31,138 nt of DNA from a virus (Duplodnaviria; Caudoviricetes): positions 1 to 31,138 of IMG/VR virus record IMGVR_UViG_3300027874_000027; one strand, given 5' to 3'. The translations under genes and the position numbers were made by a program. A model generated the notes under the pieces. That model saw only the letters and a program-made list of their open reading frames with translations, was not told the DNA's origin and did no database searches. This document shows positions 27 to 31,138 of the stretch, piece by piece. The number at the start of each line of letters is the position of its first letter. The first letter of the stretch is position 1.

Positions 27-500
27 TCAACCTCCTGCTGGTTCGAGCGCGTATTTTTTGCCCTCGACGTTTGCGGGCACGCCCGGCCAAAGCTCGAAGA
101 AGTAAAGCCGCGTCGAGTCGCCAATGTTGTGACTGATCTTCGAGTTGACGATCTTCGCGAGGCAATACGCAGCTTCGCCCGTCTTGTCGCTGGGTCCGAT
201 GTCACCGGTCACGGCTGCGCTCGTGTCCATCGTGAGCAGATTAGTCAAGCGCGCGCGACAGCCCATCACGACGGGTGCGACCATCGAACGAATCTGCGGC
301 GGCACGACGATGTAGCGATCGACATCAGCGTTGAGATATTTGCCGGAATTGTAGTAGGCGGTTTGGCTTTGATGATACGGGTCGCCGTGCGCGGGTCCGC
401 TGCCGTCGTTGCAGATGTCGAGATCGCTCACGAAGCAGACATAGTTGCCGCTTGCGTTCGTGTAAATTCTGACGCCGTCAATGATGAGAAGTGTGTTCAT
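27..500 (-). CDS. Putative endolysin, glycoside hydrolase family 75 (chitosanase-like)
   Basis: Motifs DLDICNDG, DPYHQSQT, LNADVDRYIVVP and GDIGP...GEA resemble GH75. Lies directly downstream of a holin-like gene. Confidence 0.75.
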   Translation of the reverse strand: MNTLLIIDGVRIYTNASGNYVCFVSDLDICNDGSGPAHGDPYHQSQTAYYNSGKYLNADVDRYIVVPPQIRSMVAPVVMGCRARLTNLLTMDTSAAVTGDIGPSDKTGEAAYCLAKIVNSKISHNIGDSTRLYFFELWPGVPANVEGKKYALEPAGG

Positions 501-4005: not shown

Positions 4006-6206
4006 GCTTTTTTGCCTCCGCTCGTCTTCTTCGGTTTGATCGCCTTCACGCCCGGGTTCACGTTCGGAATGTAAGCGTGCCCGCCGAAATTGATACGGTT
4101 CGAGAACTTCGTCTCGCACTGATCAATGCTCCCATCGTAACCGGGATAAAAGACACACGACGCACTCGCAGTCGCTTTCAAGAGCGGTCGATCGAGATAG
4201 AGCTGCACGAGGTTCGAGCCTATGGGCGCTGACTCAAGAATCGAGCGCTTTTCAAGCGTCGCACCCGCGCCGGTCTCTAACCAACCGCCAGCGAAGAACG
4301 AGGTGACCTGCGCGTGCCCGGTTGTGCTCGTCACGCTGATCGTCTGCGATGTCGTGTCGATCACACCCGGGAGCGTGCCGCTGTATTGGAATGACGCTGC
4401 ACTGATCTGCGTCGGCGGGCTGAACTGCGTGTAGTTGTCGCTCACGCTCAGCAGAAAGCGCGGGAACTTGCGATCGAACAGATTGCCGAACGGCACTGCG
4501 GTCGTCTTGTAGTCGCTGTCGATCGACGTGACATCGCCGAAGAAGCGCGAGATCGCGGTCGTCGATGACGGTGTGACAGCATCGACTTCGACGATCTCGA
4601 TCGTGAGAATCGCGTCGAGCGCGAACGGCCACATCTTGTTGAGCGGATTGTTCGTGAACTTGAAGCTCTTCACTTCGAGCTTCTCTTGATCGAGCTTCAG
4701 CCCGACTTTCACCTTGTCGAACGAGAACGGCGCTGGCGTGTAAGTGCCCGCATAAGTGCCGCTTGGCACCACGATCGAGTTCTCGTAAGACGTGAAGCGC
4801 GACGTCTGAATGCCAACCTCGTTGAAGATAAACAGATACGCAGGCTGCGGCAGCGTGCTCGGTAACACGCTCGTCGCCTCGGTGATGAACGTGTCGCCAG
4901 CTTCAGTGATGAACGTGTCACTCGCTTCGGTGATCAGCGTGCTGCTGAGATAGTCGCTCGAATACTCGTGCGACAGCTCGACGAACTTGATGCGCGTCGT
5001 CGCGAGGTACGGCGTCGTGTATGTCCACTCAAGCGTGGCTTCAGCGAAGCGCGCGAGCAAGAGATGACTCACGATCGTCGTCGCAGCGCTGAACGCAGCG
5101 ACGTTCACGGTTGCTGTGAGATCGGTCTCTTGCGCGAGATCAGTCGTCGAGACCTGATACGGCGTGACGTTCGAGTTCGCGTCGATCAAGCAGATGAACG
5201 GGTCTCCCGGTTGAATCTCGCGCGACGGGTCTGAGAAAAAACTTTTCTCACATCGAATCAGCGTTGCACCGCCGGGTGTGTCAGCGAGCATTCGCAGATC
5301 ACCGCGATACGTCGGCACGCAGAAGCGCAGCGTCGTCGCGAGACACGAGCGCCAGAAGTATTCGATCTCGCTCGCTGAGTCGCGGTCTGCTTGATAGAAC
5401 TCAAGCTCTTGCCCGCGCGGCGTGCGATGATCATACGCGCGCTGCTGCTCTTGACGCAGAAAGCCGACCTGCTCGTAGATCACGTCAGGCATCTCAGTCC
5501 AGTCGAGCGGCTGCGAGAAGTTCGGCGCGACGTCCCACTTCAGCAGAGACGAGAACGTCGCGATGTTCGAGCCAACAGTCGAGAGCGTGACCGCTGTCGT
5601 CGTCACGCGGTAAGAATAGTCGCTGCTCTCTTTGAGCGTGAAGTCGCTCTCGAACGCTTCGTCTGTGATCTGCTCAGGCTGTGGACGCTCGTCCAAACGG
5701 CCGAGGATGAGCGGAAACAGCTGCGTGCCAGCTGCCCACGCGTTGACTGCGCCCGCGCTGAGAGCGATCGTCCAAGCGCCCGCAGAGCCCGTGATGCCAG
5801 TCACGGTGACGATCTCATACGTCGAGAAGTCGCTGTTCGAGACGATCCAGAAGCTGCCCGAGCGCACGGGTCGATCAAGCGTCGTGAATGAAGTCGCGCC
5901 CGCGCTCGCGTTCGTCGCGATCTCGCACGCATCAGTCCAGAGCGGAGCGAGAATCGACTCACCGCGCACGCGCGTGAGAAAGATGCGCAGCTCAGTCGCA
6001 TCAGCAGCGTTCGAGAGATACGAGCGCCACGTCATCTTGTAGCGCGCACTCTGCGCAAAGTTGCGACGACTTTCAGCGAACGTGATCGGCTTTTTCGCGA
6101 CATCTGTCGGCAGATCGAGCGTGAGCTTGATCTCGCTTTCCCAGTTCGGTTGCGCGACGAGCAGCCCGACTTGTTGTGATTGAAAAGTGATGATGCGCGC
6201 GATCAT
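4002..6206 (-). CDS. Fused distal-tail / baseplate hub protein (DUF2163/BR0599-like C-terminus)
   Basis: 734 aa directly after the tape measure gene. C-terminal PGYDGSIDQCETKFSNRINFGGHAYIP matches the BR0599 pattern. Confidence 0.8.
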   Translation of the reverse strand: MIARIITFQSQQVGLLVAQPNWESEIKLTLDLPTDVAKKPITFAESRRNFAQSARYKMTWRSYLSNAADATELRIFLTRVRGESILAPLWTDACEIATNASAGATSFTTLDRPVRSGSFWIVSNSDFSTYEIVTVTGITGSAGAWTIALSAGAVNAWAAGTQLFPLILGRLDERPQPEQITDEAFESDFTLKESSDYSYRVTTTAVTLSTVGSNIATFSSLLKWDVAPNFSQPLDWTEMPDVIYEQVGFLRQEQQRAYDHRTPRGQELEFYQADRDSASEIEYFWRSCLATTLRFCVPTYRGDLRMLADTPGGATLIRCEKSFFSDPSREIQPGDPFICLIDANSNVTPYQVSTTDLAQETDLTATVNVAAFSAATTIVSHLLLARFAEATLEWTYTTPYLATTRIKFVELSHEYSSDYLSSTLITEASDTFITEAGDTFITEATSVLPSTLPQPAYLFIFNEVGIQTSRFTSYENSIVVPSGTYAGTYTPAPFSFDKVKVGLKLDQEKLEVKSFKFTNNPLNKMWPFALDAILTIEIVEVDAVTPSSTTAISRFFGDVTSIDSDYKTTAVPFGNLFDRKFPRFLLSVSDNYTQFSPPTQISAASFQYSGTLPGVIDTTSQTISVTSTTGHAQVTSFFAGGWLETGAGATLEKRSILESAPIGSNLVQLYLDRPLLKATASASCVFYPGYDGSIDQCETKFSNRINFGGHAYIPNVNPGVKAIKPKKTSGGKKA
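4876..4934. repeat. 24-bp in-frame tandem repeat (about 2.5 copies) encoding ITEAxDTF
   Basis: gcctcggtgatgaacgtgtcgcca / gcttcagtgatgaacgtgtcactc / gcttcggtgat. Confidence 0.85.
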
Positions 6207-9028
6207 CGCATCCCGAGATTGATTCGATTGCCCTTCACGGTGTCGAAGATGATCTTCTGACCGTCACGTGAAGCCATGTGTTTCGTCAGCGCTTTCAAGT
6301 CAGTGAACGCATACACGTGCACGCCACCGCCGCTCATCAGACCGCCGCTCGTGCCCGCACCCGGAGAACCGAAACTGATGCCGACTTTGTCGCCACCGCC
6401 CATGCCGATGTCACTCGGAACGGGACCGCCGTTGTGAAGTCGAAGTCGCAGTCTGCCAATCGCGCCACCTCGATGCGAGATTCCGCCAAAGCCGATGTGA
6501 CTCTGCGCGCTGCCGCCCATGATTCCGCTCGCTGCAAGTGCTGACGCAACTGCAGCTGCGAAAGCGCCGTAGCTGCCGCCAACCCAGCCGGTGTAACCGC
6601 CGCCAGCGAAATAACCGCCGCCAATATGTCCCATGCTGGGACCGACGGGACCGCTGGGTCCGCTCGGAGTCCAAACCGGAAACGTGCTCGGAATGCCGCC
6701 GCTGCTCGTGACGCCGCCGCCGCCAGCAGTGCTTCCGCCAACACGAGTTGCGCGCAAGATCGGCAGTCCCGCGTAGGGACCGGGAACATATTCACCATAG
6801 CCGCCGCCCGGATAATCGCCCGCGCCGCCGGGTGAACCGAGCATGCCGTGACCGCCCGCCCAGATGTCGCCGCCGCCTGAACCCGGCGCAAAGTGAATAC
6901 GTCCGCCACTGCCGAAACTGAGAAGTCCGCCGCTGTGACCGATCACGCCTGCGTTGAGCGCGAGCAGAAAGTCACCGAAACGTTCAGCGACGCTTCGCTG
7001 AATCATTATCTCGCCCTCTTGCGCGATGATCGGCACTTCGTCAGGCGCGAGCCCGCCGTTGTGAAAGCGCTTCATCTTGTCTGAGATCGTGCCGCCTTCG
7101 TGCGCAATCGCTGAGAAGCCCTGCACGGCGAGAATCGCAGCGAGCACTTCTTCGGGCGCTCCGGCCGCACTTTGCCCTTCAGTCGCGATTGTCACGAGCG
7201 TTGCGGCAGGCGCCCACGCGCTCGCGACGAGCGGACCCGTGATCGCTGCTTGCGCAGCCGCAGCAGTCGCGTTGATCTTGCCCATCACTTGCTGAATGAT
7301 CAGTTGCTCGATCAGCTTCAAGCCGAGCATCTCGATCGACTGCATCATCGACTGCAGATTGAACTTGCCCGTGACGATCCACTGATTCAAGCCTTGCAGC
7401 GCGACGCCGACCGTGTCTTCGATCGTCTTCGCGACTTGCGTCATCGTGTCGCCGAAGCTCTGCGCCCAGCGCCCAAGCTCGGCTTGAAGCGGACGGGTCG
7501 CGACCTGCAGCTGCGCGAAGACGAGACGAAACTGATCACGCATCTTCGCGATCTGCGCGTCGACCTCTGCGATCTTCGCCGGGTCGCTGAGGAAACTCTT
7601 CTTCGCCTGCAGATCAGCGACCTCTTTGTTGATCGCGAGCAGATCAGCTCTGATCGTCGCGATCGTTGCGCGCGTCTTCTCATCAGCACTGATGAACGGA
7701 TTGCGACTGATGATCTCTTGCGTCGTCTTGATGTGTTCGAGAACTGCTTCGTCAGCTTTCAGCGACGCTTCGATCTGCTTGAGACCTTGATTGACGCGCT
7801 CAGTGTTCTCGACCGATTCCGGCGGCAAGATCGGCGGCATCTTGATCTGCGCGAGCGTTTCTTCGAGAAGTTTTCTCGCTTGCTCGGCGCTGATCTTCGT
7901 GTTCTTGAGCAAGTTTTCGGTCACTTTTTTGAGGACTGTTTCCCAGTCGAACGCGCTGAGTGATTCTTGAAGCGCTTTGCCGAAGTTACCGCTGAACAAA
8001 TCGCGCAGCTGCTGGAAGTTCAGAGTCTGCTTCGTGCGCTCAAGAAAACCGAGCCAGAGCGCGTCGGCGAGAGCGGGTCCGAGCTTCAAGAAGATTTCAG
8101 TGAGAACTGTGGCAGAGACTTCTGCCATTTTGTCGATCACGATCGTCCACGCTGCGAGCAGCGCCACTTGCCAGCCTTTTTCTTCAGCGATCTTCGCGAG
8201 CGCTTTCTCGATGCGCGTGATCTCGTTGATGTAAGGCGTCGCGAACGCGATGATGGGCTTGCCGATCTCGACTTCAAAGCCCTGCCACGCGGTCTTCATT
8301 GCGGTGACGGCGCCGTTCCACGTCAGTTGAAAGCCCTCGATCGAGTGCTCAAAGCGCCCGCCTGCTTCAACTGATTCACGCAGAGCTTTGTTCAGATCGT
8401 CAATCGAGACCTTGCCCGCTTTGAATCTCGTGAGCAGCTCAGCTTCGGTGACGGTGTGGCCTTCCAACTTCGTGAAGTGATCCTCAAGCAGGTTCATCAG
8501 CGTGACCGTGCCTTGCATCAGTTCGCCCATGCCGCGCGTCGCGGGCGCGGTCACGTTCTCGATCGCCATCTTCATCTTCGCGTAAGAGCCGACGAGTGCT
8601 TCGACGCTCACGCCCGTCGCGATGTGAATCTGCGCCATCTCCATCATGCGCGGAATCAAATTGTCCACGTGCGTGTGCGTGAGAATGAGCATCCGCACCG
8701 TGTTCGCGAGCGCTTCGTTGCTGACGACGCCGAACTCTTGCCAGACTTGCTCCATCTGTGTGATCACGGCGTTCGCTTTTTCAGCGTCGCCAATCATCGC
8801 GCGCAGCGGGAACGCTTCGCTCTGCAGCTGCGCCGCTTTGTTGACGGTCTCCATCACGGCGTCACCGATCTTCTGCACAACGTTGAGAACGCCGTTGAGC
8901 GCCTCTTCAGCACCGGCGACTTCAAATGCGTTCTTGAGATTGAAGAACGCTTGCTGCACTTGCTGCAGCCCGCTCAAGTTCGCGCTCGTGACGACTTGAA
9001 CGTTCAGTGTGCTCGTCGGGTTCGCCAT
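6203..9028 (-). CDS. Tail tape measure protein
   Basis: 941 aa, Ala/Leu/Gln-rich and helical, downstream of the tail chaperones. C-terminal FHxGG and DEVPIIAQEGE motifs are typical of tape measures. Confidence 0.93.
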   Translation of the reverse strand: MANPTSTLNVQVVTSANLSGLQQVQQAFFNLKNAFEVAGAEEALNGVLNVVQKIGDAVMETVNKAAQLQSEAFPLRAMIGDAEKANAVITQMEQVWQEFGVVSNEALANTVRMLILTHTHVDNLIPRMMEMAQIHIATGVSVEALVGSYAKMKMAIENVTAPATRGMGELMQGTVTLMNLLEDHFTKLEGHTVTEAELLTRFKAGKVSIDDLNKALRESVEAGGRFEHSIEGFQLTWNGAVTAMKTAWQGFEVEIGKPIIAFATPYINEITRIEKALAKIAEEKGWQVALLAAWTIVIDKMAEVSATVLTEIFLKLGPALADALWLGFLERTKQTLNFQQLRDLFSGNFGKALQESLSAFDWETVLKKVTENLLKNTKISAEQARKLLEETLAQIKMPPILPPESVENTERVNQGLKQIEASLKADEAVLEHIKTTQEIISRNPFISADEKTRATIATIRADLLAINKEVADLQAKKSFLSDPAKIAEVDAQIAKMRDQFRLVFAQLQVATRPLQAELGRWAQSFGDTMTQVAKTIEDTVGVALQGLNQWIVTGKFNLQSMMQSIEMLGLKLIEQLIIQQVMGKINATAAAAQAAITGPLVASAWAPAATLVTIATEGQSAAGAPEEVLAAILAVQGFSAIAHEGGTISDKMKRFHNGGLAPDEVPIIAQEGEIMIQRSVAERFGDFLLALNAGVIGHSGGLLSFGSGGRIHFAPGSGGGDIWAGGHGMLGSPGGAGDYPGGGYGEYVPGPYAGLPILRATRVGGSTAGGGGVTSSGGIPSTFPVWTPSGPSGPVGPSMGHIGGGYFAGGGYTGWVGGSYGAFAAAVASALAASGIMGGSAQSHIGFGGISHRGGAIGRLRLRLHNGGPVPSDIGMGGGDKVGISFGSPGAGTSGGLMSGGGVHVYAFTDLKALTKHMASRDGQKIIFDTVKGNRINLGMR

Positions 9029-12872: not shown

Positions 12873-13526
12873 TCAGTTCGTCGTCTTCTCGAAAAGCCCC
12901 ATGTCCCAGCCGCCCTTCACGCGGTTCGCGTTCATCTTCTTCACAAATTGCCAGCCGCTGCGGCGCCCGCTCATCAGACCAAGCTCTGCGACTGCGCCCA
13001 TCACGTCGAGACCTGTCGGGCAGTGCGGCTGATAGTGCCCACGCTGATCTTCATCGAAGTCGTGAAACATGATGATCGAGTTCTTCTGCATGAACGCTTC
13101 AAGCGCGAGAAAGTCGAGCATCACGCATGGCTTGCCATGACAACCGTCGATCATTGCGAACTGAATCGGCGCTTGCCACAACTCAGTCAAGAAGCTCTGC
13201 GAGTCTTTGAAATAAACAGTCACCGCAGACCACGCTGGGTGCACGATCGCGCCGTTCGGTGAGACGAAGTTGAGCGTGACGTCGCGTGCTTTCGCCCAGT
13301 CGATCGTCTTCTGACGGTCGAACGAGTAACCGTTCGGCAGCTCGACGCCAATCGCGCGCCACTGCTTGCCGCTCTCTTTGAGCGTTGACGCGATCGCACT
13401 CAGAGTCGCGCCTTCACCGACACCGATCTCGATGTAAGTGACGCTGTTGAAGCGCTGCGTGATCTCGCGCGCGCACTCGATGATCTGATCTTCAATTCCG
13501 CCCATACCAAAGCCCATTTGCATCAT
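12873..13526 (-). CDS. Class I SAM-dependent methyltransferase (Methyltransf_24-like)
   Basis: YIEIGVGEG (motif I), IDGCH and IMFHD. Confidence 0.82.
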   Translation of the reverse strand: MMQMGFGMGGIEDQIIECAREITQRFNSVTYIEIGVGEGATLSAIASTLKESGKQWRAIGVELPNGYSFDRQKTIDWAKARDVTLNFVSPNGAIVHPAWSAVTVYFKDSQSFLTELWQAPIQFAMIDGCHGKPCVMLDFLALEAFMQKNSIIMFHDFDEDQRGHYQPHCPTGLDVMGAVAELGLMSGRRSGWQFVKKMNANRVKGGWDMGLFEKTTN

Positions 13527-14359
13527 GTTAAGTCTCCGACAAGTGTTGCTGCTTCTTCTTGCTCAAGCTGCGCGAGCGCGAAGCCCGCCACCTCTTCAGG
13601 CAGCGTGCGATACAGCTCAAGACATCCAACTTCACACGACGCGCGAAAGTTCGGGCGCAAACAATGACAGCCCGCGCAGTCGAGCGCTTTCTTTCGATAG
13701 CTGATCACTTCAGGAATGTGCGCGTAGATGCGCTCAGTCGTTGCGCCTTGAATCGCGATCGTCTTCGTGCCAATCGTGCCCGCGAGGTGGGCGGGTCCGC
13801 TGTCATTGCCGATCACCAAGCGCGCACTCTGCATCGCAGCGGCGATGTAGTTCCAGTTCTGCCCGACGATGCAGTGAAACGGCATGAAGAACGCGTAGTC
13901 ACGCTGCTCAGTCACGACTTTCACGCTGTAGCCAGCGTCACGCAGAATCAGACCAAGCTCGACAAAGTAGTTGCGCGGCCACGTTCTCACGGGCGAATAC
14001 GACGACGGAAAGATGAGCACTTCTGCGCTGTCGCGACGACCCATCTCGCGATCCATCGGCACGAGATTGAGTCTCGGACGTTTCGGCTGTGCGGTGACGC
14101 CGAGGTGGTACGCCATCCACTGCAAGTATGAGAGCGGCGAGTCGTTCTTCACTGCTGTCTCGTAGCCTTGATGCGTGAGTCTCGCGCCGGTCGGGTCGTT
14201 CGTGACACTCAGTTGAAACATCTTGAGCATCTCGGCTCTCCAGTCGGTGGCAAAGAACTCGATGTCATCGCCTGCGGCGACGCAGCCCTCGCCGAGCCAC
14301 GCGAAGCAGACGATGTCACCAACGCCTTTGAACCAGCCATTGTATGTGTCGATCTTCAT
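13523..14359 (-). CDS. Glycosyltransferase family 9 (heptosyltransferase-like)
   Basis: GVGDIV at the N-terminus, RTWP, IGNDSGPAHLAG and C-terminal CxxC...C. Confidence 0.88.
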   Translation of the reverse strand: MKIDTYNGWFKGVGDIVCFAWLGEGCVAAGDDIEFFATDWRAEMLKMFQLSVTNDPTGARLTHQGYETAVKNDSPLSYLQWMAYHLGVTAQPKRPRLNLVPMDREMGRRDSAEVLIFPSSYSPVRTWPRNYFVELGLILRDAGYSVKVVTEQRDYAFFMPFHCIVGQNWNYIAAAMQSARLVIGNDSGPAHLAGTIGTKTIAIQGATTERIYAHIPEVISYRKKALDCAGCHCLRPNFRASCEVGCLELYRTLPEEVAGFALAQLEQEEAATLVGDLT

Positions 14360-24454: not shown

Positions 24455-24539
24455 CGCTGTCACGCTGTCACGCTGTGACATTGCAGTCAACAAAAAAATC
24501 AATTCGACATCTACAAAGTGTTCGCTGATACTGTTCGCT
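24455..24539. promoter_or_regulatory. Divergent promoter region
   Basis: Rightward TCGACA(24504)-17-GATACT-9 nt-ATG. Leftward TTGACT(24490)-17-CAGCGT-9 nt-ATG. (CGCTGTCA)x3-like repeat at 24455-24478; TGTTCGCT at 24519 and 24532. Confidence 0.6.
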
Positions 24540-24541
24540 AT

Positions 24542-25108
24542 ATGACTAAAACATTGCAGAAAAATGGACAAAGCAAGATCGTCGCGCGACCGCTCACAAC
24601 GCTCGTGCCACTGATCAAGGAAACACTCGCCGACGCATACGAAGCGGGTCTCGACTACTACATCAAGATCGGCGGCATGCTGCACGAAGCGAAAGCACAA
24701 GTTGAACTCGGGAAGTGGAAAAATTGGCTCGCGCAAAACTTCCACCTCTCAGCTTCAACGGCGAGCAATTACATGATGGCGTTCAACAAGCGACGATCTC
24801 GATCGTCGTTCAGAACAGCGTCTGAAGCGTGGCGGCCGAACGCAAGCGCGCATCATCAGCCCGCGTGGCAATCGACCGTCAAAGATCGCGTCGCGCAAGC
24901 GCGCAAGCAGTCACAGATTTTTGAGCGTGACGAACTCTCGCGCAAACAAGAAAGCGACGCGCTGCAGAAGCTCGCGCATCGTCTGATCGACATCGGCTAC
25001 AAAGTGCTCAGCATCGAGCTGCACCCGGACAAGGGTGGTTCGCACGAAGCGATGTTGCGCTTGAACGAAGTGCGCACTCACCTGCGCTCAGCAGTGGAGG
25101 ACTTATGA
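24542..25108 (+). CDS. DUF3102-like protein with C-terminal J-domain-like HPD motif
   Basis: IGGMLHEAKAQVELGKWKNWL...TASNYM and LHPDKGGSHEAMLRLNE. Confidence 0.75.
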   Translation: MTKTLQKNGQSKIVARPLTTLVPLIKETLADAYEAGLDYYIKIGGMLHEAKAQVELGKWKNWLAQNFHLSASTASNYMMAFNKRRSRSSFRTASEAWRPNASAHHQPAWQSTVKDRVAQARKQSQIFERDELSRKQESDALQKLAHRLIDIGYKVLSIELHPDKGGSHEAMLRLNEVRTHLRSAVEDL

Positions 25109-25602
25109 GCCTCGCGAAACAGCGCAGAAAAGAATTGAAGAACAGACAGCTCGCGAGAGTTGAAGCGAAGCTCGTCAAAGTCGCTGGGCGTCTGATCTCG
25201 AACAAAGTCGGGCGCTACCAGCACAAGATCACGCGCGACATGATCGAGCTGTCGCGTCACGGCAACGGCGTGACGACGATCAAAGCGATCGCGCTCGCGC
25301 AGTTCGGCTCAGCCCGTCGCGATCAGCAAGCATACGTGCGCAAGCGCAGCAGCGAAGTCGTCAACGAACTGCTGCGCAGCGGCGTGCTGTGTTACCCTGA
25401 GTTCGAGGTCGCGGGCTATCACCGACTCAAGGCGATCAAGTTCTATCTCGGCGACAGCGAAGACAAGATTCAATTGCCGCTCTACTTGAAGCGGATGCTC
25501 GATCGCAAACAGATCAGCGCGCACAAATATGATGGCTTGATCGAGCTGCAGAAACACATCGACGACAACAACGAAGAGAACTCACATGAAACACGAAACT
25601 GA
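25105..25602 (+). CDS. Hypothetical protein
   Basis: 165 aa, GGAGG SD, ATGA overlap. Confidence 0.75.
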   Translation: MSLAKQRRKELKNRQLARVEAKLVKVAGRLISNKVGRYQHKITRDMIELSRHGNGVTTIKAIALAQFGSARRDQQAYVRKRSSEVVNELLRSGVLCYPEFEVAGYHRLKAIKFYLGDSEDKIQLPLYLKRMLDRKQISAHKYDGLIELQKHIDDNNEENSHETRN

Positions 25603-25738
25603 ACAAGAGATCATTCGACGCGCGATGTCGATCATGGGCTCGCGCAAAAGCGCGCGCAAGACGCGCGCGTGCCGAGCGAACGCGAAGCGTCCGCGCAAGC
25701 GCAAAAAGCACGTCTCGCGCAAGCGCGTCCCTTCGTAA
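25586..25738 (+). CDS. Small, very basic putative DNA-binding protein (50 aa; not in the ORF track)
   Basis: Manual translation MKHETEQEIIRRAMSIMGSRKSARKTRACRANAKRPRKRKKHVSRKRVPS*. Confidence 0.65.
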   Translation: MKHETEQEIIRRAMSIMGSRKSARKTRACRANAKRPRKRKKHVSRKRVPS

Positions 25739-25761
25739 AGTGCTCATTTTGAGCACTTTAC
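25735..25761. repeat. Perfect 12-bp inverted repeat (terminator or protein-binding site)
   Basis: gtaaagtgctca-ttt-tgagcactttac. Confidence 0.7.
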
Positions 25762-25789
25762 AAGGCTGAAAAATAGTTGAAAAAAGATG

Positions 25790-25818
25790 TTGCAGCGATC
25801 TGTTCGCTATATTAGGAT
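25790..25818 (+). promoter_or_regulatory. sigma70-like promoter for a leaderless transcript, with operator
   Basis: TTGCAG-17-TAGGAT-6 nt-ATG(25825). Operator AGCGATC-T-GTTCGCT at 25794-25808. Confidence 0.72.
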
Positions 25819-25824
25819 GTGTGC

Positions 25825-26169
25825 ATGTCAAACACAACTCAATCAGTAACGGTTGCGGGCAATGCGCCGCGATTCACAGCAAATGAAATCAAAGTCTTGA
25901 AGGCGCTTCATGCGTCGATGCAAGGCAACGGCTTCGACTTCGGCTTCGTTGATGAAGCGACCAACGTCGAGGGCTTGAGCAAAGCATCAGCGGGCGCAGT
26001 GCTGCGCGAAGTGCGCAAGAAAGTGCGCATCACGACTTGGGACCCAGTCACGACTGACTCGGGCACTTACACGCAGATCACTGCGTCGTTGCCTGATGAT
26101 GGCGTCGGCTACGAGTCACTGAAGAACTTTCACGTGTGGCTGCGTCTGATCGACAAAGCTGCGAAGTGA
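25825..26169 (+). CDS. Hypothetical protein (possible winged helix); carries internal motif copy A
   Basis: MSNTTQSVTVAGNAPR... Confidence 0.75.
   Translation: MSNTTQSVTVAGNAPRFTANEIKVLKALHASMQGNGFDFGFVDEATNVEGLSKASAGAVLREVRKKVRITTWDPVTTDSGTYTQITASLPDDGVGYESLKNFHVWLRLIDKAAK
25845..25872 (+). repeat. AGUNAYGG + bulged hairpin motif, copy A
   Basis: agtaacgg ttgcgg gc aat gc g ccgcga. Confidence 0.8.
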
Positions 26170-26258
26170 TCAACTGTCTGCTCGCGCGCGTCGCGAGCAG
26201 CAAGATGAACACAACATCAGAAAGAACAGCAGTCATGGGCGTGAGCATTGCGTCACGC
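26166..26258 (+). repeat. Two-hairpin gene-start element, copy B
   Basis: gtgatcaactgt ctgctcgcg-cgcgt-cgcgagcag caag ATG ... agtcatgg gcgtga gc att gc g tcacgc. Confidence 0.92.
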
Positions 26259-26381
26259 GATTATTCAGAGCTGGACAACTTCAGCGCGCGCTTCAACAGA
26301 GCGATCGACATCGTCGTTGCGATCGTTGATCGCTTCGTCATCACGCCGCTGATCGGAGGAGGTGAAGCGAGTGACTACTAA
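26205..26381 (+). CDS. Hypothetical protein (58 aa)
   Basis: MNTTSERTAVMGVSIASR...; start defined by the repeat element. Confidence 0.65.
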   Translation: MNTTSERTAVMGVSIASRDYSELDNFSARFNRAIDIVVAIVDRFVITPLIGGGEASDY

Positions 26382-26625
26382 GAACAAGCGCGTGCACATC
26401 TCGAACCGCGTGCGCTTCGGCGTCTATTGGCGCAGAATCGGCACGACGCAGTGGTTCGGGCGCTCGAACTACGCGACTGAAGAAGCTGCGCTGCAGCACT
26501 TCATCGAGTTCGGCAAGCCCGACTCACTCGGCTTCGTGAGCATCGCTGCTGACGATTACGAAGTGATCATCGAGCGTCTTGAGATCAAAGCGACACAACT
26601 GAAGCACAAAATCATCAGAGCTTAG
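26371..26625 (+). CDS. Hypothetical protein
   Basis: GTG 26371 preceded by GGAGGAGG. Confidence 0.7.
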   Translation: MTTKNKRVHISNRVRFGVYWRRIGTTQWFGRSNYATEEAALQHFIEFGKPDSLGFVSIAADDYEVIIERLEIKATQLKHKIIRA

Positions 26626-26712
26626 TGTTCGACAGTCTGCGCGTTCGTGAGAGCGCGCAGCATGATGAGCACAAAACCAAACGAAGTAATGGGCGAGAGC
26701 ACAGCGTCTCGC
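26625..26712 (+). repeat. Two-hairpin gene-start element, copy C
   Basis: gtgttcgacagt ctgcgcgttc-gtga-gagcgcgcag catg ATG ... agtaatgg gcgaga gc aca gc g tctcgc. Confidence 0.9.
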
Positions 26713-27027
26713 AACGGCATTTACAACAATTACGAGAACGTGAAAAAACTGATCGCGCGAATCTGCGACAACAGATTGCCCGGGCTGCAGCTGTCGGTCG
26801 ACCCGATGTGCGGCACGCTCGAAGTCAGCAAGCGCGGCAGCGGGTTCGCAATTCTCGCGACTCCGTTCTGGGAAGATGAACGAAAGCTGCCCGTGCAGAT
26901 CATCACGGAAGCTGGCGATGACGTGCTTGCGTGCGATGTGCACGTCGCGTGGACGCAAGACATCGAGCGCGATGCGCAGCTCTGGGAGAACGCAATCAAA
27001 CCGTTCGTGAGCTTCTACCTGCAGTGA
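26665..27027 (+). CDS. Hypothetical protein
   Basis: MSTKPNEVMGESTASR...ATPFWE. Confidence 0.72.
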   Translation: MSTKPNEVMGESTASRNGIYNNYENVKKLIARICDNRLPGLQLSVDPMCGTLEVSKRGSGFAILATPFWEDERKLPVQIITEAGDDVLACDVHVAWTQDIERDAQLWENAIKPFVSFYLQ

Positions 27028-27117
27028 TCAACTGTCTGTGCTCGCACTGTCGAGCACAGCAAGATGAGCACAAAAAAGCAGAAGACAGCAGTAACGGGCG
27101 GGGGCACAGCGCCTCGC
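27024..27117 (+). repeat. Two-hairpin gene-start element, copy D
   Basis: gtgatcaactgt ctgtgctcg-cactgt-cgagcacag caag ATG ... agtaacgg gcgggg gc aca gc g cctcgc. Confidence 0.92.
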
Positions 27118-27441
27118 ATGACAGTGAGTGAGCAGATTGAAGTCTCGATGCGCGCGCGTCTGCACGCGATCAAGACTGCGTGCGACCTCGTCGTCGCGAG
27201 CAGCACGAACGAAGGGCTCGTGAAGTTCGCGCTCTTGATCGCTGAGAAGACGGGCATCGTCGCTGAACCGCTTGAGATCATCGTCGCACGTCAATCATCA
27301 AGCAGCATGAGCGAACGCTTCGCGATCTACGCGAACGGCAAACTGATCGAGGGCGGCTTCTTCTCGCGCGCATACGCTGAAGCATGGGCGCAGAAGTACC
27401 GCGACGGCAAGTTCAGCATCCCGAAAGGTGGTGCGCGATGA
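27064..27441 (+). CDS. Hypothetical protein
   Basis: MSTKKQKTAVTGGGTAPR... Confidence 0.72.
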   Translation: MSTKKQKTAVTGGGTAPRMTVSEQIEVSMRARLHAIKTACDLVVASSTNEGLVKFALLIAEKTGIVAEPLEIIVARQSSSSMSERFAIYANGKLIEGGFFSRAYAEAWAQKYRDGKFSIPKGGAR

Positions 27442-27632
27442 ACGACGACATCACAACGCGCGGCAAGACTGCGCATGATCGCGCGATCTGCTCGATCTGC
27501 GGGCGTCCTTACAAAGATCACGGACACAACGCGCAACCGATCAACAACGGGCGCTGCTGCGACACGTGCAACACGAACATCGTCGTGCCGCGTCGCATCG
27601 AGAACATGAAGCGCGCGAAGGAGGCACGATGA
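27438..27632 (+). CDS. Small zinc-binding phage protein
   Basis: CSICG...GHNAQP...GRCCDTCN...VVPRR. SD-like AAAGGTGG and ATGA overlap. Confidence 0.8.
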   Translation: MNDDITTRGKTAHDRAICSICGRPYKDHGHNAQPINNGRCCDTCNTNIVVPRRIENMKRAKEAR

Positions 27633-28597
27633 ACATCGTCACGTTCAACGAACCGTTCGAGCACGCGATCGCTGCATGGACTGCCGGTCAGCCTGAGCTT
27701 CGAGCAGTTGCTGAAGTGTCGTCGCTGCCGTTCAAGAACTGGCAGACGTCACCGCTCTTCAACTACGCGACGCTGCGCGAGAAAGAGCAGAAGCTGATCA
27801 AGTCGATGCTTGAGTCTGACTTCAAGCTCGAAACGTGCCCGTGGCCGTTCGAGACGTTCAGGCTCTCAATGGTCGAGCGCGCGAACGAGAAGTGGGACGA
27901 CCCGCTCTATCCTGGTCAGAAGTTCGGCGGCGGTCACTACCGCGCTGACTTCGTTGTCACCCGTCACAACGAGCACATCTACATGCTTGCGAACGTGATT
28001 CGACTCTTCGATGAAACGCCGCAGACGCTCGCGATCGCGCGCAAGCACGCACCGATGATCGTCTACATCGGCGACGTCTTCACGACGCTCGACAACCCTG
28101 ATCAGTACCAATACAAGCACGCGATCTTCAGCGCCGGGCGCTGGTTCTTCGACATCGAGAGCACGACGCTCTTCACGATCGACTGCGGTCTGATGGACTC
28201 GCTCGCTGGCTTCATTCTCGATTCGATTGCACCGAACAATCGCGTCGCTGAAGTGCGCCCAGCAGTGAACGGGCACACGTCAGTCGAGTGGGTCAAAGCG
28301 CGCACGCACTACACGCTGATCACGCACGATCACCCGGCGAACTCGAAAGACGTCGCTGAGCGCGCGCGCGTCAATCAGGGCAGCGCTGACGAGCAGATGA
28401 AGCGCATGGCGCACGCGCGTCGCGCACACTTCAAGACGCTCAAGCATCCGCGCTACCGCTTCGCGCTGAACGAGCAGCGCTTCGCACATCTGCCGAAGGG
28501 CACGATCTTCGTCAAGCAAGCGTGGGTCGGACCCAAAGAATGGATGGACGAAGGCGGACGTCAAATCTACAAGATACTCGAACCGATCGACGAGTGA
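27629..28597 (+). CDS. Hypothetical phage protein with C-terminal HxRRxH...WVG motif
   Basis: AAGGAGG SD; HARRAHFK...VKQAWVG. Confidence 0.8.
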   Translation: MNIVTFNEPFEHAIAAWTAGQPELRAVAEVSSLPFKNWQTSPLFNYATLREKEQKLIKSMLESDFKLETCPWPFETFRLSMVERANEKWDDPLYPGQKFGGGHYRADFVVTRHNEHIYMLANVIRLFDETPQTLAIARKHAPMIVYIGDVFTTLDNPDQYQYKHAIFSAGRWFFDIESTTLFTIDCGLMDSLAGFILDSIAPNNRVAEVRPAVNGHTSVEWVKARTHYTLITHDHPANSKDVAERARVNQGSADEQMKRMAHARRAHFKTLKHPRYRFALNEQRFAHLPKGTIFVKQAWVGPKEWMDEGGRQIYKILEPIDE

Positions 28598-28604
28598 AAA
28601 TCGA

Positions 28605-28662
28605 CTGTGCATATCTTGCTGAACATGTTCAGCTGAACAGCACAAGATATGCACAGCTTTTT
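28605..28662 (+). terminator. Long inverted repeat with nested palindromes and T tract (terminator or operator)
   Basis: ctgtgcatatcttg (28605-18) / caagatatgcacag (28643-56) followed by cttttt. Confidence 0.55.
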
Positions 28663-28674
28663 CTTGAAATAATG

Positions 28675-28703
28675 TTGCAGAGCGAACAGTTCGATGAGAG
28701 GAT
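28675..28703 (+). promoter_or_regulatory. sigma70-like promoter for a leaderless transcript, with operator
   Basis: TTGCAG-17-GAGGAT-6 nt-ATG(28710). Operator AGCGAAC-A-GTTCGAT at 28681-28695. Confidence 0.7.
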
Positions 28704-28709
28704 GGCAGC

Positions 28710-28994
28710 ATGTCGAACACAACTCAAAACAACAACGAAGTCAGCGCGACGACTGAGCAAGATCGCGCAATCGCGCGTGCAGCAACGATCAACCACTGGA
28801 GCAAGCAGATCGCTGCGCGCACGAACTATCAGCAATACAAAATCTCACATCTTCAGCTGCAGAAACTTCTCGAAGTCGTGCACTGCGGCGGCGCGCGCAC
28901 GCTCGAACACGTCGCGGGTCTCGTGAACACGAACCTCTTCATCGAGCGCATCGCGCAGAACACATTCAGAATCGAACTGCGCAACAACATCTAG
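28710..28994 (+). CDS. Hypothetical protein
   Basis: MSNTTQ N-terminus is identical to that of the 25825 gene. Confidence 0.72.
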   Translation: MSNTTQNNNEVSATTEQDRAIARAATINHWSKQIAARTNYQQYKISHLQLQKLLEVVHCGGARTLEHVAGLVNTNLFIERIAQNTFRIELRNNI

Positions 28995-28997
28995 TTC

Positions 28998-29084
28998 GTG
29001 ATCAGCTGTCTGCGCACTCGCTGAGTGCGCAGCAAGATGAGCACAACAACACAAGCAGTCATGGGCGCGAGCACAGTGTCGCGC
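28998..29084 (+). repeat. Two-hairpin gene-start element, copy E
   Basis: gtgatcagctgt ctgcgcactc-gct-gagtgcgcag caag ATG ... agtcatgg gcgcga gc aca gt g tcgcgc. Confidence 0.92.
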
Positions 29085-29642
29085 TTCGGCAACTCTTCAA
29101 CAACGATGACCGCCAAGTTCGCAGGCACGTGCGTCGGCTGTCATCAGCGCATTCACGTCGGCGATCAGATCGAGTGGTCGCGCGGCGCTGGTGCGCGTCA
29201 CGTGCACTGCCCTGAAGTCAGTGAGACGCAGAGCGACGCGATCGCGTTCATCAGCTCTGAGCGCACGCGCGAGCGCACGATCTCGATCAGCCCGGGCGTG
29301 TTTCGCAAAGACGGGCGCATCTATGTCGTCAAGCAGACGCGCAAAGACAGCGCGAACCCTGACGCACCGCGCCGTCTCTACGCGAAAGAGATCATCGAGA
29401 GCGCAAAGCGCATCACTGAAGACGGCGAGCAAGCTGACTTCGAGAGCGTGTATGCGCGCGGCGTCGTCTATGATCTCACTGAAGCTGATCGCTGGGACTG
29501 GGCAGACGCGAGCGCGTTCTTGACGAAGTATGCGCGCTGCATCGTCTGCAACGCGCACTTGAAAGCAGCGAAGAGCGTCGCGGGCGCGATCGGACCCGTC
29601 TGTGCGAAGTATTTCAAGCACAAGCACGCAGAAGCAGCGTAA
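29037..29642 (+). CDS. Protein with two zinc-binding modules (C-terminal DUF6011-like)
   Basis: AKFAGTCVGC...HVHC and CIVCNAHL...SVAGAIGPVC. Confidence 0.78.
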   Translation: MSTTTQAVMGASTVSRFGNSSTTMTAKFAGTCVGCHQRIHVGDQIEWSRGAGARHVHCPEVSETQSDAIAFISSERTRERTISISPGVFRKDGRIYVVKQTRKDSANPDAPRRLYAKEIIESAKRITEDGEQADFESVYARGVVYDLTEADRWDWADASAFLTKYARCIVCNAHLKAAKSVAGAIGPVCAKYFKHKHAEAA

Positions 29643-29739
29643 ATGTTCGACGACACTGTCGCTCGCGCAAGCGGGCGGCAGCACGATGAACATGAACAAC
29701 AAAGCAGCAGCAGTGATGGGCGAGGGCATTGCGCCTCGC
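29643..29739 (+). repeat. Two-hairpin gene-start element, copy F
   Basis: atgttcgacgaca ctgtcgctcgc-gcaa-gcgggcggcag cacg ATG ... agtgatgg gcgagg gc att gc g cctcgc. Confidence 0.9.
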
Positions 29740-29925
29740 AGCAGCAAGCGACCAGCGATCGTGAGCGATGAGCATCTTCGCTTTCTCGACGCTCTGCGCG
29801 AGAGCGGCGCGACGAACATGTTCGGCGCGGGTCCGTATCTCGTCGAGCAGTTCAACGTCACGCGCTCTGAATCGCACACGATTCTCGGCTACTGGATGAA
29901 GAGCTTCGGAAAGGAGACGCGATGA
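29686..29925 (+). CDS. Small phage protein (LRESGxTNMFGA family)
   Basis: FLDALRESGATNMFGAGPYL...WMKSF, preceded by the shared leader. Confidence 0.8.
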   Translation: MNMNNKAAAVMGEGIAPRSSKRPAIVSDEHLRFLDALRESGATNMFGAGPYLVEQFNVTRSESHTILGYWMKSFGKETR

Positions 29926-30248
29926 CGAACGAACAAATCGAAGAAGCATCACGTCAGCACTTCTATTGGTTCGCGAAAGCGGTCACTGCGCTCGACAAGA
30001 TGCGCGTGCTCGCGCTCGACATGACGCAGCAGCACACTGACGCGTTCGCGAAAGCACAGCAAGAGTTCAAAGAAGCGAGCGGGCGCTGCAAGGTCGAGTT
30101 CGAGATCATGCAGAAAGGCATGATCGCGCAGATCGAGCAGCAGCTCGCGAAAGATGATCCGATTCAGCGCTTGCTTGACGGCGGCGGCGAAGGCGGCTCG
30201 ACCGATTGTCTGTTCGACGACGAGAGCAACGATGAAGAAGTTTCCTAA
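29922..30248 (+). CDS. Hypothetical coiled-coil protein
   Basis: AAAGGAG SD, ATGA overlap. Confidence 0.75.
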   Translation: MTNEQIEEASRQHFYWFAKAVTALDKMRVLALDMTQQHTDAFAKAQQEFKEASGRCKVEFEIMQKGMIAQIEQQLAKDDPIQRLLDGGGEGGSTDCLFDDESNDEEVS

Positions 30249-30654
30249 TGCGAGCGAAGCGTTCAAAGCCCTTAACGCTGGTCTTGGACTATCGCGTCCC
30301 GTCACTCAATCGAGTGCTCAAGCGTCACTGGGCGATCGTGCATCGCGAAAAGCGTCGCGTGCTGCTCGCACTCGGCTCAGCTATTGCGCGAGCCTTGTGC
30401 GACCGCTCGACCCCGACAACTTGGCTGGCTCGACTAAATACTGCACAGACGCGCTTGTGCGCAGCGGTCTGCTTCATGGGGATTCGCCAGAGCAGATCGA
30501 GATCGTCTGGTCGCAGAAAAAGGTCGCTCACTTTGATGAGGAAAAGCTCACTATCACAATTTCAGGCTGCGCAGACATCGCAGCTGAAGTCGGAGCAGCG
30601 GCAACCGATGAAAGCGCCGCAGAACAAAGCAAACAGAAAGAAAAAATAACATGA
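30232..30654 (+). CDS. rusA: RusA-like Holliday junction resolvase, catalytic half
   Basis: RPLDPDNLAGSTKYCTDAL...LLHGD matches the RusA D-x-D-N...K...D pattern. Confidence 0.7.
   Translation: MKKFPNASEAFKALNAGLGLSRPVTQSSAQASLGDRASRKASRAARTRLSYCASLVRPLDPDNLAGSTKYCTDALVRSGLLHGDSPEQIEIVWSQKKVAHFDEEKLTITISGCADIAAEVGAAATDESAAEQSKQKEKIT
30248..30649 (+). CDS. Overlapping ORF carrying a RusA-like N-terminal segment
   Basis: TAATG-coupled start. LTLVLDYRVPSLNRVLKRHW...REK resembles the RusA N-terminal PSxN...HW...K segment. Confidence 0.55.
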   Translation: MRAKRSKPLTLVLDYRVPSLNRVLKRHWAIVHREKRRVLLALGSAIARALCDRSTPTTWLARLNTAQTRLCAAVCFMGIRQSRSRSSGRRKRSLTLMRKSSLSQFQAAQTSQLKSEQRQPMKAPQNKANRKKK

Positions 30655-31138
30655 TCAAAGGAATCACTCTGCCAGCGCTTGCTGAGCAGATCAAACGAGA
30701 ACACGGCGAGAAGAAAGACTTCATCGCGCCGACGACGCAGCTGCGCTACGAAGCGAAAGGCGAGCGCGGCTCGATCGGCTTCGCGATGAACGACAACGAC
30801 TGGGTCGAGACCGAACCGACCGAGCATTGTCTCGCGCAAATATGTCAGCGATCAGGAATTCCCAAGCCCTACGCCGACAGAATGCGCGGAGACAACCTCG
30901 AATTGCTCGCTCACAACGTTAATTGGTGGTGGCAGCACAAGTCAGAGAAGCGCATGTTGCGCACGCTTGTCAATGGCGAGCATCGCGCACGCGCGTTCGT
31001 GAGCGAGCGCTATCGCCCGCTCGACAACTACGATCTCGCAAAGGTCGTGCTTCCGCGTCTCGCGAAAGCTGGGTGTGAAGTTCTCTCGTGTCAGATCACT
31101 GAAACGAGACTCTACATTCAAGCAGCGACGCCGGAGAT
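30651..31138 (+). CDS. DUF932-like phage protein, 3'-truncated (not in the ORF track)
   Basis: Manual translation MIKGITLPALAEQIKRE...GIPKPYADRM...MLRTL...RARAFVSERYRPLDNYDL..., open to the window end. Confidence 0.8.
   Translation, partial: MIKGITLPALAEQIKREHGEKKDFIAPTTQLRYEAKGERGSIGFAMNDNDWVETEPTEHCLAQICQRSGIPKPYADRMRGDNLELLAHNVNWWWQHKSEKRMLRTLVNGEHRARAFVSERYRPLDNYDLAKVVLPRLAKAGCEVLSCQITETRLYIQAATPE

Follow-up and report, generated by a model that had tools for sequence, protein, structure and literature searches.

A bulged-G RNA hairpin in the 5′ coding region of phage early genes as one part of a start-codon module

The MS2-type coat operator is a bulged-A hairpin that lies over the initiation site and is bound by the phage's own protein, the lambdoid nut site joins a boxA consensus and a five-base purine boxB loop to a cognate basic N protein. 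Closest to the system considered here are the RNase III signals of T7 early RNA (R1.1 type; PMC1540722), the downstream loop (DLP) of alphaviruses (PMC4872096), the downstream CA-repeat enhancer of leaderless messages (PMC9031893), the PeSL cassettes of T4-type phages (PMC2839356) and RNase III leader trimming in Staphylococcus aureus (PMC3386247). Here we analyse the tailed-phage record IMGVR_UViG_3300027874_000027 of IMG/VR (31,138 nucleotides (nt); hereafter the window), in which six genes carry, just behind their start codons, an unpaired 8-mer AGTNAYGG followed by a 20-nt hairpin with a bulged G, 28 nt in total (hereafter the element). We find that this is a real, uncatalogued, phage-borne RNA element of 5′ coding regions and belongs to a start-codon module; a preliminary description of the window had captured one half of a larger arrangement that reaches upstream of the AUG, where promoter-like sites and hairpins burying the start codon are found.

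The hairpins found here upstream of the element resemble the T7 signals in being long, irregular and placed between early genes, with an upper stem of about 10 base pairs (bp), an internal loop and, in 8 of 17 cases, a U-C opposition at the stem base; unlike the T7 signals, however, they hold the AUG inside the stem and lack a Shine-Dalgarno (SD) sequence, their predicted cut would give a leaderless message, and the likeness extends to the upstream half of the module only (PMC1540722). Their box sequences follow the E. coli pattern only in part. The element itself shares with the DLP the form of a coding-region stem-loop, its hairpin starting at +26 to +35 from the AUG and the DLP performing best at 25 and 34–40 nt, but the DLP arrests the 40S subunit during scanning, at the eukaryote-specific ES6S region, whereas the element is bacterial, small and sequence-specific (PMC4872096). 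Membership in the DLP class, tied to eukaryotic scanning and ES6S, fails for a tailed prokaryotic phage with sigma-70-type promoter-like sites. The A/C-rich, unpaired linker between AUG and element (65–95% A+C) recalls the downstream CA-repeat enhancer, which is unstructured and for which no conserved structured element is described (PMC9031893). PeSL cassettes likewise are repeated regulatory cassettes heading small, swappable early genes; they place promoter, terminating stem-loop and SD all upstream, whereas here the conserved part is intragenic and internal copies have neither promoter nor SD (PMC2839356). Trimming by RNase III in S. aureus has also been proposed to generate short or leaderless 5′ ends, but its substrate is a duplex of two divergent transcripts and no cis hairpin that recurs in front of genes, and the mapped tagH end lies upstream of the SD (PMC3386247).

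An MS2-type coat operator was rejected on the basis of the G in the bulge, the hairpin position 26–35 nt downstream and the lack of a protein common to all carriers, and a lambdoid nut site on the basis of the 3-nt loop, the different 8-mer and a basic protein present in only four of six phage records. Among the three functions put forward in the preliminary description, an enhancer fits best, with the upstream context pointing to leaderless messages, whereas identity with the alphavirus DLP or an MS2-type operator fails on defining features; the phage-regulator and boxA/boxB-like readings are weakened, since no phage protein tracks the element across genomes.

The element and its fold

The window carries terminase, portal, head and tail genes on the minus strand and, from 24.5 kb on, a plus-strand run of small, mostly family-less genes that contains all six copies (Table 1); the carrier genes are termed early on account of their position and gene content. 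All six copies in the preliminary description are present on the plus strand with the geometry reported there, and the pair lists given for 4-17 and 6-15 are correct. Of the two swaps ascribed to copy A, that at pair 1 is indeed a two-sided change, whereas that at pair 2 is one-sided, to U-G. The spacing of 20 or 26 nt from the ATG holds within the window and becomes 17, 20, 23 or 26 nt across relatives. The reading frame is constant, as had been noticed, but needs no special cause, because insertions and deletions within a coding linker would have to be multiples of three. For copies C and F there is a further ATG in frame. The carrier genes are unrelated, their products showing no mutual similarity beyond residue 20 (BLASTP E ≤ 1). 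Hairpin stabilities range from −8.8 to −11.1 kcal/mol. The 8-mer occurs ten times in the window against an expectation of 3.8, a count reached in 0 of 100 shuffles, and hairpins of the same geometry occur 17 times on the plus and 18 times on the minus strand, preceded by the 8-mer only in the six copies. When the window was searched without filters using the covariance model described below, the six copies, which are training rows of that model, scored 42.7–50 bits and everything else at most 13.7 bits.

Further copies were gathered by pattern scans of viral, metagenome and genome collections and by a related-locus search. A covariance model, as proposed in the preliminary description, was built from 33 aligned copies and run against 52 sequence sources with a cut-off of 22 bits. 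With duplicates and window-identical records (L086–L088, L096–L098, L104) excluded, 41 distinct copies scored at least 22 bits. The window accounts for six of them and 25 further viral or metagenome sequences for 34, while one, deep inside a long open reading frame (ORF) of L071, is probably a chance match. Thirty-six of the 41 sit 17, 20, 23 or 26 nt after an in-frame ATG (GTG in one case), and one is truncated at a contig end. Five copies outside the model-building set are likewise start-linked.

Pairing was kept in 99.6% of the 264 cells of the 33-row alignment, with two-sided changes at five of eight pairs and 0 of 500 shuffles as high, although these rows were hand-chosen and the search pattern had fixed five pairs in most of them. 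A fairer test used scan patterns that left stem positions 4–6 and 15–17 free, which returned 51 distinct hits (two truncated). All three free pairs formed in 24 of 27 hits with an in-frame start at 17–26 nt, compared to 2 of 22 other hits (Fisher p 1.2e-8, a value to be read with the shared descent of the copies and the addition of offsets 17 and 23 after the hits had been viewed). RNAalifold returned the same fold unprompted, with 8-mer and linker unpaired, and revealed neither a longer structure nor a pseudoknot of the 8-mer on 66 columns. The two apical pairs are supported as well, because A-U and U-G are seen there in copies outside the training set. Paired changes in the stem alter amino acids and third codon positions stay fixed, and selection therefore acts on the nucleic acid; a peptide signal was rejected for the same reasons, as stem pairing is kept through residue changes. 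The earlier proposal of a cis-acting, sense-strand RNA structure at the starts of mostly SD-less genes is thus supported. In the 36 start-linked copies the element never begins before +18, and the downstream edge of the initiation complex lies at roughly +16.

A/C-rich starts without the 8-mer often bear other hairpins near +30, several of them with an identical GCG/CGC base and a GCA or CAGAA loop (window 28744–28768; L063:4024, 4258; L069:1117, 1423 (−); L070:1930; L092:1030; L100:1688; L082:750). Five of 21 such starts had z < −2 compared to codon shuffles, one of the five being read one base out of frame. These hairpins are possibly sister classes of the element, and the one in the window is possibly a diverged relative.

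Promoter-like sites and AUG-burying hairpins

Fixed context rules were applied to the 35 start-linked copies with upstream sequence, and 2377 ATGs of six phage records (G000–G005, of which G001 and G005 are partial and G000 is probably incomplete too) served as controls. The promoter rule held for 13 of 35 copies versus 31 of 2377 control ATGs and the hairpin rule for 10 of 35, including window copies B–F, versus 47 of 2377, where both rules were written after viewing the data, the controls include true cases and the copies share descent. None of the ten hairpin-led copies meets the promoter rule. The remaining 12 comprise three near-miss promoters, one −35 only, one truncated hairpin and seven with neither context. 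In promoter-led copies the −10 ends 5–8 nt before the AUG (two have perfect TTGACA and TAnnnT), a geometry predicted to place the RNA start at or next to the AUG. An SD-like motif precedes five of the 35 copies; in the window, it precedes one of six element genes versus 13 of 29 other genes (two mis-set starts dropped).

This proximity to promoters also bears on a function in transcription, in which the element would bring about pausing or, in the manner of boxA/boxB, antitermination, and would be loaded anew wherever an RNA 5′ end arises. The order of unpaired 8-mer and hairpin has the architecture for it, a promoter-like site is found within 50 nt of 13 of the 35 copies, and a basic candidate protein (see below) is encoded nearby in some phages. 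However, the position remains tied to the AUG even without a promoter, as in five of the six window copies, the candidate protein was not found in G001 and G004, and the 3-nt loop and the 8-mer are unlike boxA and boxB of lambda, so that we regard a transcription signal as distinctly improbable.

The second context consists of hairpins that bury the AUG. Nineteen were picked by eye, including those in L001 and L081, and the set omits duplicate loci, alternative ATGs, the promoter-led L133:2039 and seven rows in which a lower stem or early-gene context was missing. The downstream element is absent from the genes behind eight of the 19. The upper stems have 7–12 pairs and a 2x2 loop, with at least 10 pairs in 10 of 19, stabilities of −11 to −21 kcal/mol and 18 G-U pairs in all; six of seven tetraloops are GNRA or UNCG. 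These G-U pairs and RNA tetraloops disfavour an N4-type DNA hairpin promoter. Exactly 4 nt separate the upper stem from the AUG in 17 of 19 cases, and the A of the AUG is unpaired in 17 of 17 in the symmetric register. The predicted probability that the AUG is unpaired rises from 0.34–0.38 in the uncut to 0.75–0.96 in the cut RNA. RNase III sites comprise about two helical turns, with 11 bp or more from cut to loop; the lower stem here is irregular. Compared to the E. coli proximal box (GC, AU/UA, AU, AU/UA), in an assumed register and with a host enzyme that may differ, GC is found at position 1 in 14 of 19, AU/UA at position 2 in 12 of 19 and AU at position 3 in 0 of 19. A scan of viral contigs with an upstream-hairpin pattern yielded 52 matches, none of them AUG-burying with early-gene context, which were taken as chance.

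The main alternative to cutting of these hairpins is coupling by unfolding, which is documented in phages f1 and MS2 (PMC12548453). Here, the hairpin would stay intact, a ribosome terminating on the previous gene would melt the lower stem and free the AUG, and the element would aid restart without an SD. A stop codon 7–21 nt 5′ of the upper stem in 16 of 19 hairpins places the lower 5′ arm within reach of the terminating ribosome, and several element genes follow a stop by just 1–9 nt. Yet close stops are expected in any compact genome, and the upper stem would remain folded 4 nt before the AUG and hinder loading; coupling thus appears improbable to us.

Genes B and E switch predicted upstream context between phages. 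The homologue of gene B in G002 (42%, E 8e-7) is promoter-led, whereas gene B is hairpin-led in the window, and gene E is 48% identical to a gene of L001 that lacks the first 20 codons together with the element and lies behind a weak promoter-like site. The element could accordingly be viewed as a recombination linker for early-gene shuffling, as with PeSL cassettes, its RNA fold being incidental: the gene headed by one and the same hairpin differs between the window and L001, the gene E homologue lacks the first 20 codons, and relic copies exist inside genes. Recombination, however, favours identity, whereas the stem sequence varies here and pairing is kept at a cost in amino acids, which leaves this explanation scarcely credible.

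Distribution, candidate host and neighbouring genes

Apart from the L071 match, the copies outside the window come from seven records of IMG/VR and from 18 short contigs of metagenomes. With 66 of the 78 contig ORFs submitted, a PHROG match was obtained for nine contigs; the other nine are possibly viral. The structural module of the window is common to G002 and G003 and had no match in G004 or in the partial records G001 and G005, which suggests that the element probably crosses phage lineages. A looser downstream pattern gave ten matches, four already known and six without the fold. Neither a GTDB pattern scan (13 matches; two pair 3/3, one of them with a GTG at offset 26) nor a model search of 150 genomes of one Verrucomicrobiota family (13 matches at 21.8–32 bits, with 47 candidates scored per genome) revealed a credible chromosomal copy; 11 of the latter 13 were examined, all but two from unpublished genomes, and of four compared with ORFs, one lay where a host gene ends, whereas three were antisense to genes. 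In L066 (3399–3530), the element is found 101 nt past the ATG behind an 81-nt segment with a near-perfect 10-base flanking repeat and was probably displaced by an insertion.

The preliminary description had recognised no known family, and Rfam 15 at gathering score indeed placed none on the element in window positions 24500–31138 and 13 related loci, returning only weak unrelated matches. No title or abstract opening that we found describes the element, in a literature search whose coverage largely leaves out subscription papers. An IMG/VR structured-RNA screen of DNA viruses excluded coding regions first, and such elements would therefore have been missed (PMC10690425). Four motif strings were absent from six supplementary files of that screen, among whose candidates the intergenic upstream hairpin could be.

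No protein was common to all six phage records among ORFs of at least 50 amino acids (aa). A weak candidate for a partner is a basic protein family of 44–60 aa, represented in the window by a 50-aa Arg/Lys-rich ORF (25586–25738) that belongs to no known family. No Pfam match to a phage nuclease or RNA polymerase was found in the 51 ORFs of G002 and G003 outside the structural module, most of which are family-less, so that this does not amount to absence. The candidate partner bears on the possibility that the element is a negative signal, namely a repressor operator or nuclease recognition site that shuts early genes off and is placed in the coding region because a leaderless message offers no other place. 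Its invariant unpaired bases, fixed bulge and fixed first loop base resemble a protein-binding surface, the element is confined to early genes, and a small Arg/Lys-rich protein is encoded near early promoters in G000, G002, G003, G005, L066, L099 and L101. On the other hand, this protein was not found in the carriers G001 and G004, it is present in L145/L146 and L148, where the available stretches showed no element, and no other protein unites the six records either. Moreover, known operators lie over the initiation site, but the first 17 nt stay clear of the element. We consider a negative signal unlikely, though it is the most serious rival of the reading favoured below.

Verrucomicrobiota are the lead for the host. 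In one Verrucomicrobiota family, 27 of 61 genomes contain the VPDSG-CTERM motif at a score above cut-off, versus 0 of 14 controls (the host-genome tallies include up to three unpublished genomes), and a protein of G003 matches it just below cut-off. A phage protein with a VPDSG-CTERM-like sorting tail was also seen in L133 (2483–3073, minus strand). RNase III was found in 59 of the 61 genomes tallied for the candidate host family. A 157-aa protein (window 27–500, minus strand), also found in G001, G004 and G005, is GH75 chitosanase-like by language-model features only, with the family assignment present on 22% of cluster members, and is a possible lysis enzyme; weakly related proteins were found in 2 of 301 genomes of Verrucomicrobiota and in 0 of 201 of Acidobacteriota. 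In cultured phages, tblastn gave no match to this protein, and blastn matches to copy F were at chance level only. Terminase matches in 1 of 301 (35% identity) and 0 of 251 genomes are uninformative on the host.

Several further features were observed in these sequences. Glycosyltransferase family 9 and Methyltransf_24 genes (window 12873–14359, minus strand) directly follow the protease-capsid fusion gene and are kept in G002 and G003. Long imperfect inverted repeats, possibly terminators or operators, lie immediately 5′ of both early promoter-like sites of the window (25728–25770 and 28587–28660). About 1 kb of short degenerate, GGCA/GGC-rich repeats is found 5′ of an early promoter in L002 (~6860–7930), and a 6-base tandem repeat (GAGACA) within a replication-type gene in L063 (~5735–5790).

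Table 1 Features of the early region of the window.
Feature	Position	Strand	Remarks
Gene A	25825..26169	+	114 aa; no family
Promoter-like site A	25790..25818	+	TTGCAG, 17 nt, TAGGAT; −10 ends 6 nt before gene A ATG; predicted leaderless start
Copy A	25845..25872	+	20 nt past ATG at 25825
Gene B	26205..26381	+	58 aa; G002 homologue promoter-led
Hairpin B	26166..26212	+	9-bp upper stem 26178–26200, 2x2 loop, lower stem pairs start region; predicted processing site
Copy B	26231..26258	+	26 nt past ATG at 26205
Gene C	26665..27027	+	120 aa; no family
Hairpin C	26625..26672	+	10-bp upper stem 26637–26660, GNRA loop
Copy C	26685..26712	+	20 nt past ATG at 26665
Gene D	27064..27441	+	125 aa; no family
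Hairpin D	27024..27071	+	9-bp upper stem 27036–27059
Copy D	27090..27117	+	26 nt past ATG at 27064
Variant site	28675..28768	+	weak promoter-like site 28675–28703 on ATG at 28710, A/C-rich linker, variant hairpin 28744–28768, no 8-mer
Gene E	29037..29642	+	201 aa; phrog_636, weak DUF6011
Hairpin E	28998..29044	+	10-bp upper stem 29010–29032
Copy E	29057..29084	+	20 nt past ATG at 29037; identical 20-nt hairpin heads another gene in L001
Gene F	29686..29925	+	79 aa; no family
Hairpin F	29643..29693	+	11-bp upper stem 29656–29681, two G-U pairs, GNRA loop
Copy F	29712..29739	+	26 nt past ATG at 29686

A possible route to leaderless messages

Promoter and hairpin are interchangeable at the same base, which suggests the AUG as the RNA 5′ end in either context. 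On this basis, the element may well be the downstream half of a module that generates leaderless messages and enhances their use, a reading we put forward tentatively. Promoter-led copies would be transcribed from the AUG. For internal genes, the 3′ strand would be cut at the AUG or immediately before it by a host RNase acting on double strands, likely RNase III, as a cut at the 2x2 loop with a 2-nt stagger would put the 3′-strand break at −1 or +1 of the AUG; a 5′-phosphate start would thereby be freed, and the upstream message would keep a protective hairpin. RNase III needs about 11 bp beside its cut, internal loops can limit cutting to one strand and leave a protective 3′ hairpin, and in R1.1 a U-C pair adjoins the cut (PMC1540722). 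Leaderless initiation, in turn, requires a 5′ phosphate and profits from CA repeats and a sparsely structured start region (PMC9031893). A 70S ribosome would then load on the unstructured linker, and the 8-mer and bulged hairpin, just past its downstream edge, would bind a host component that favours initiation. The module may also travel between genes as a 5′ cassette. In favour of the scheme, copies displaced far into genes have changed at positions that are conserved elsewhere. We favour a positive, host-read initiation element because the element would start just beyond the edge of the initiation complex and the linker fits leaderless needs.

Besides the late formulation of the context rules, several observations weigh against this scheme. 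Many promoter- or hairpin-led A/C-rich genes of these phages lack the element, which is therefore not required, and the seven of 35 copies with neither context are preceded by a close stop, an SD-like motif or nothing recognisable. Three phage copies lie 101–143 nt inside genes and are still fully paired. Promoter A of the window is weak, falls below the stock scan threshold and contains an AGGA readable as an SD. Judged by the rules for the RNase III of E. coli, the upper stem opens with G-C or C-G in 19 of 19 hairpins and has such a pair in second place in 7 of 19, and nine of 19 upper stems have fewer than 10 pairs. The 2-bp helix adjoining the AUG pairs in 9 of 17 only, and in only 11 of 19 cases does the sense strand give the more stable fold of the entire upstream hairpin.

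A broader version, possible though doubtful, is that these phages run their early genes by a dedicated leaderless route, in which a host RNase cuts each polycistron at start codons and a sequence-specific coding-region structure recruits or holds the 70S ribosome. How individual leaderless messages are selected and regulated is an open question, and the review that raises it is aware of no reported protein or small RNA that regulates them (PMC9031893). If the proposed function is true, the element would act on leaderless translation as a structured, gene-specific enhancer, a type of control listed there as unreported, and a cut at the AUG would provide a routine way of turning a polycistron into leaderless messages. 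The module offers a strongly covarying 28-nt candidate with ~40 natural variants and a defined position that is directly testable with reporters and, should the host belong to soil Verrucomicrobiota, both of its halves could serve as expression parts there.

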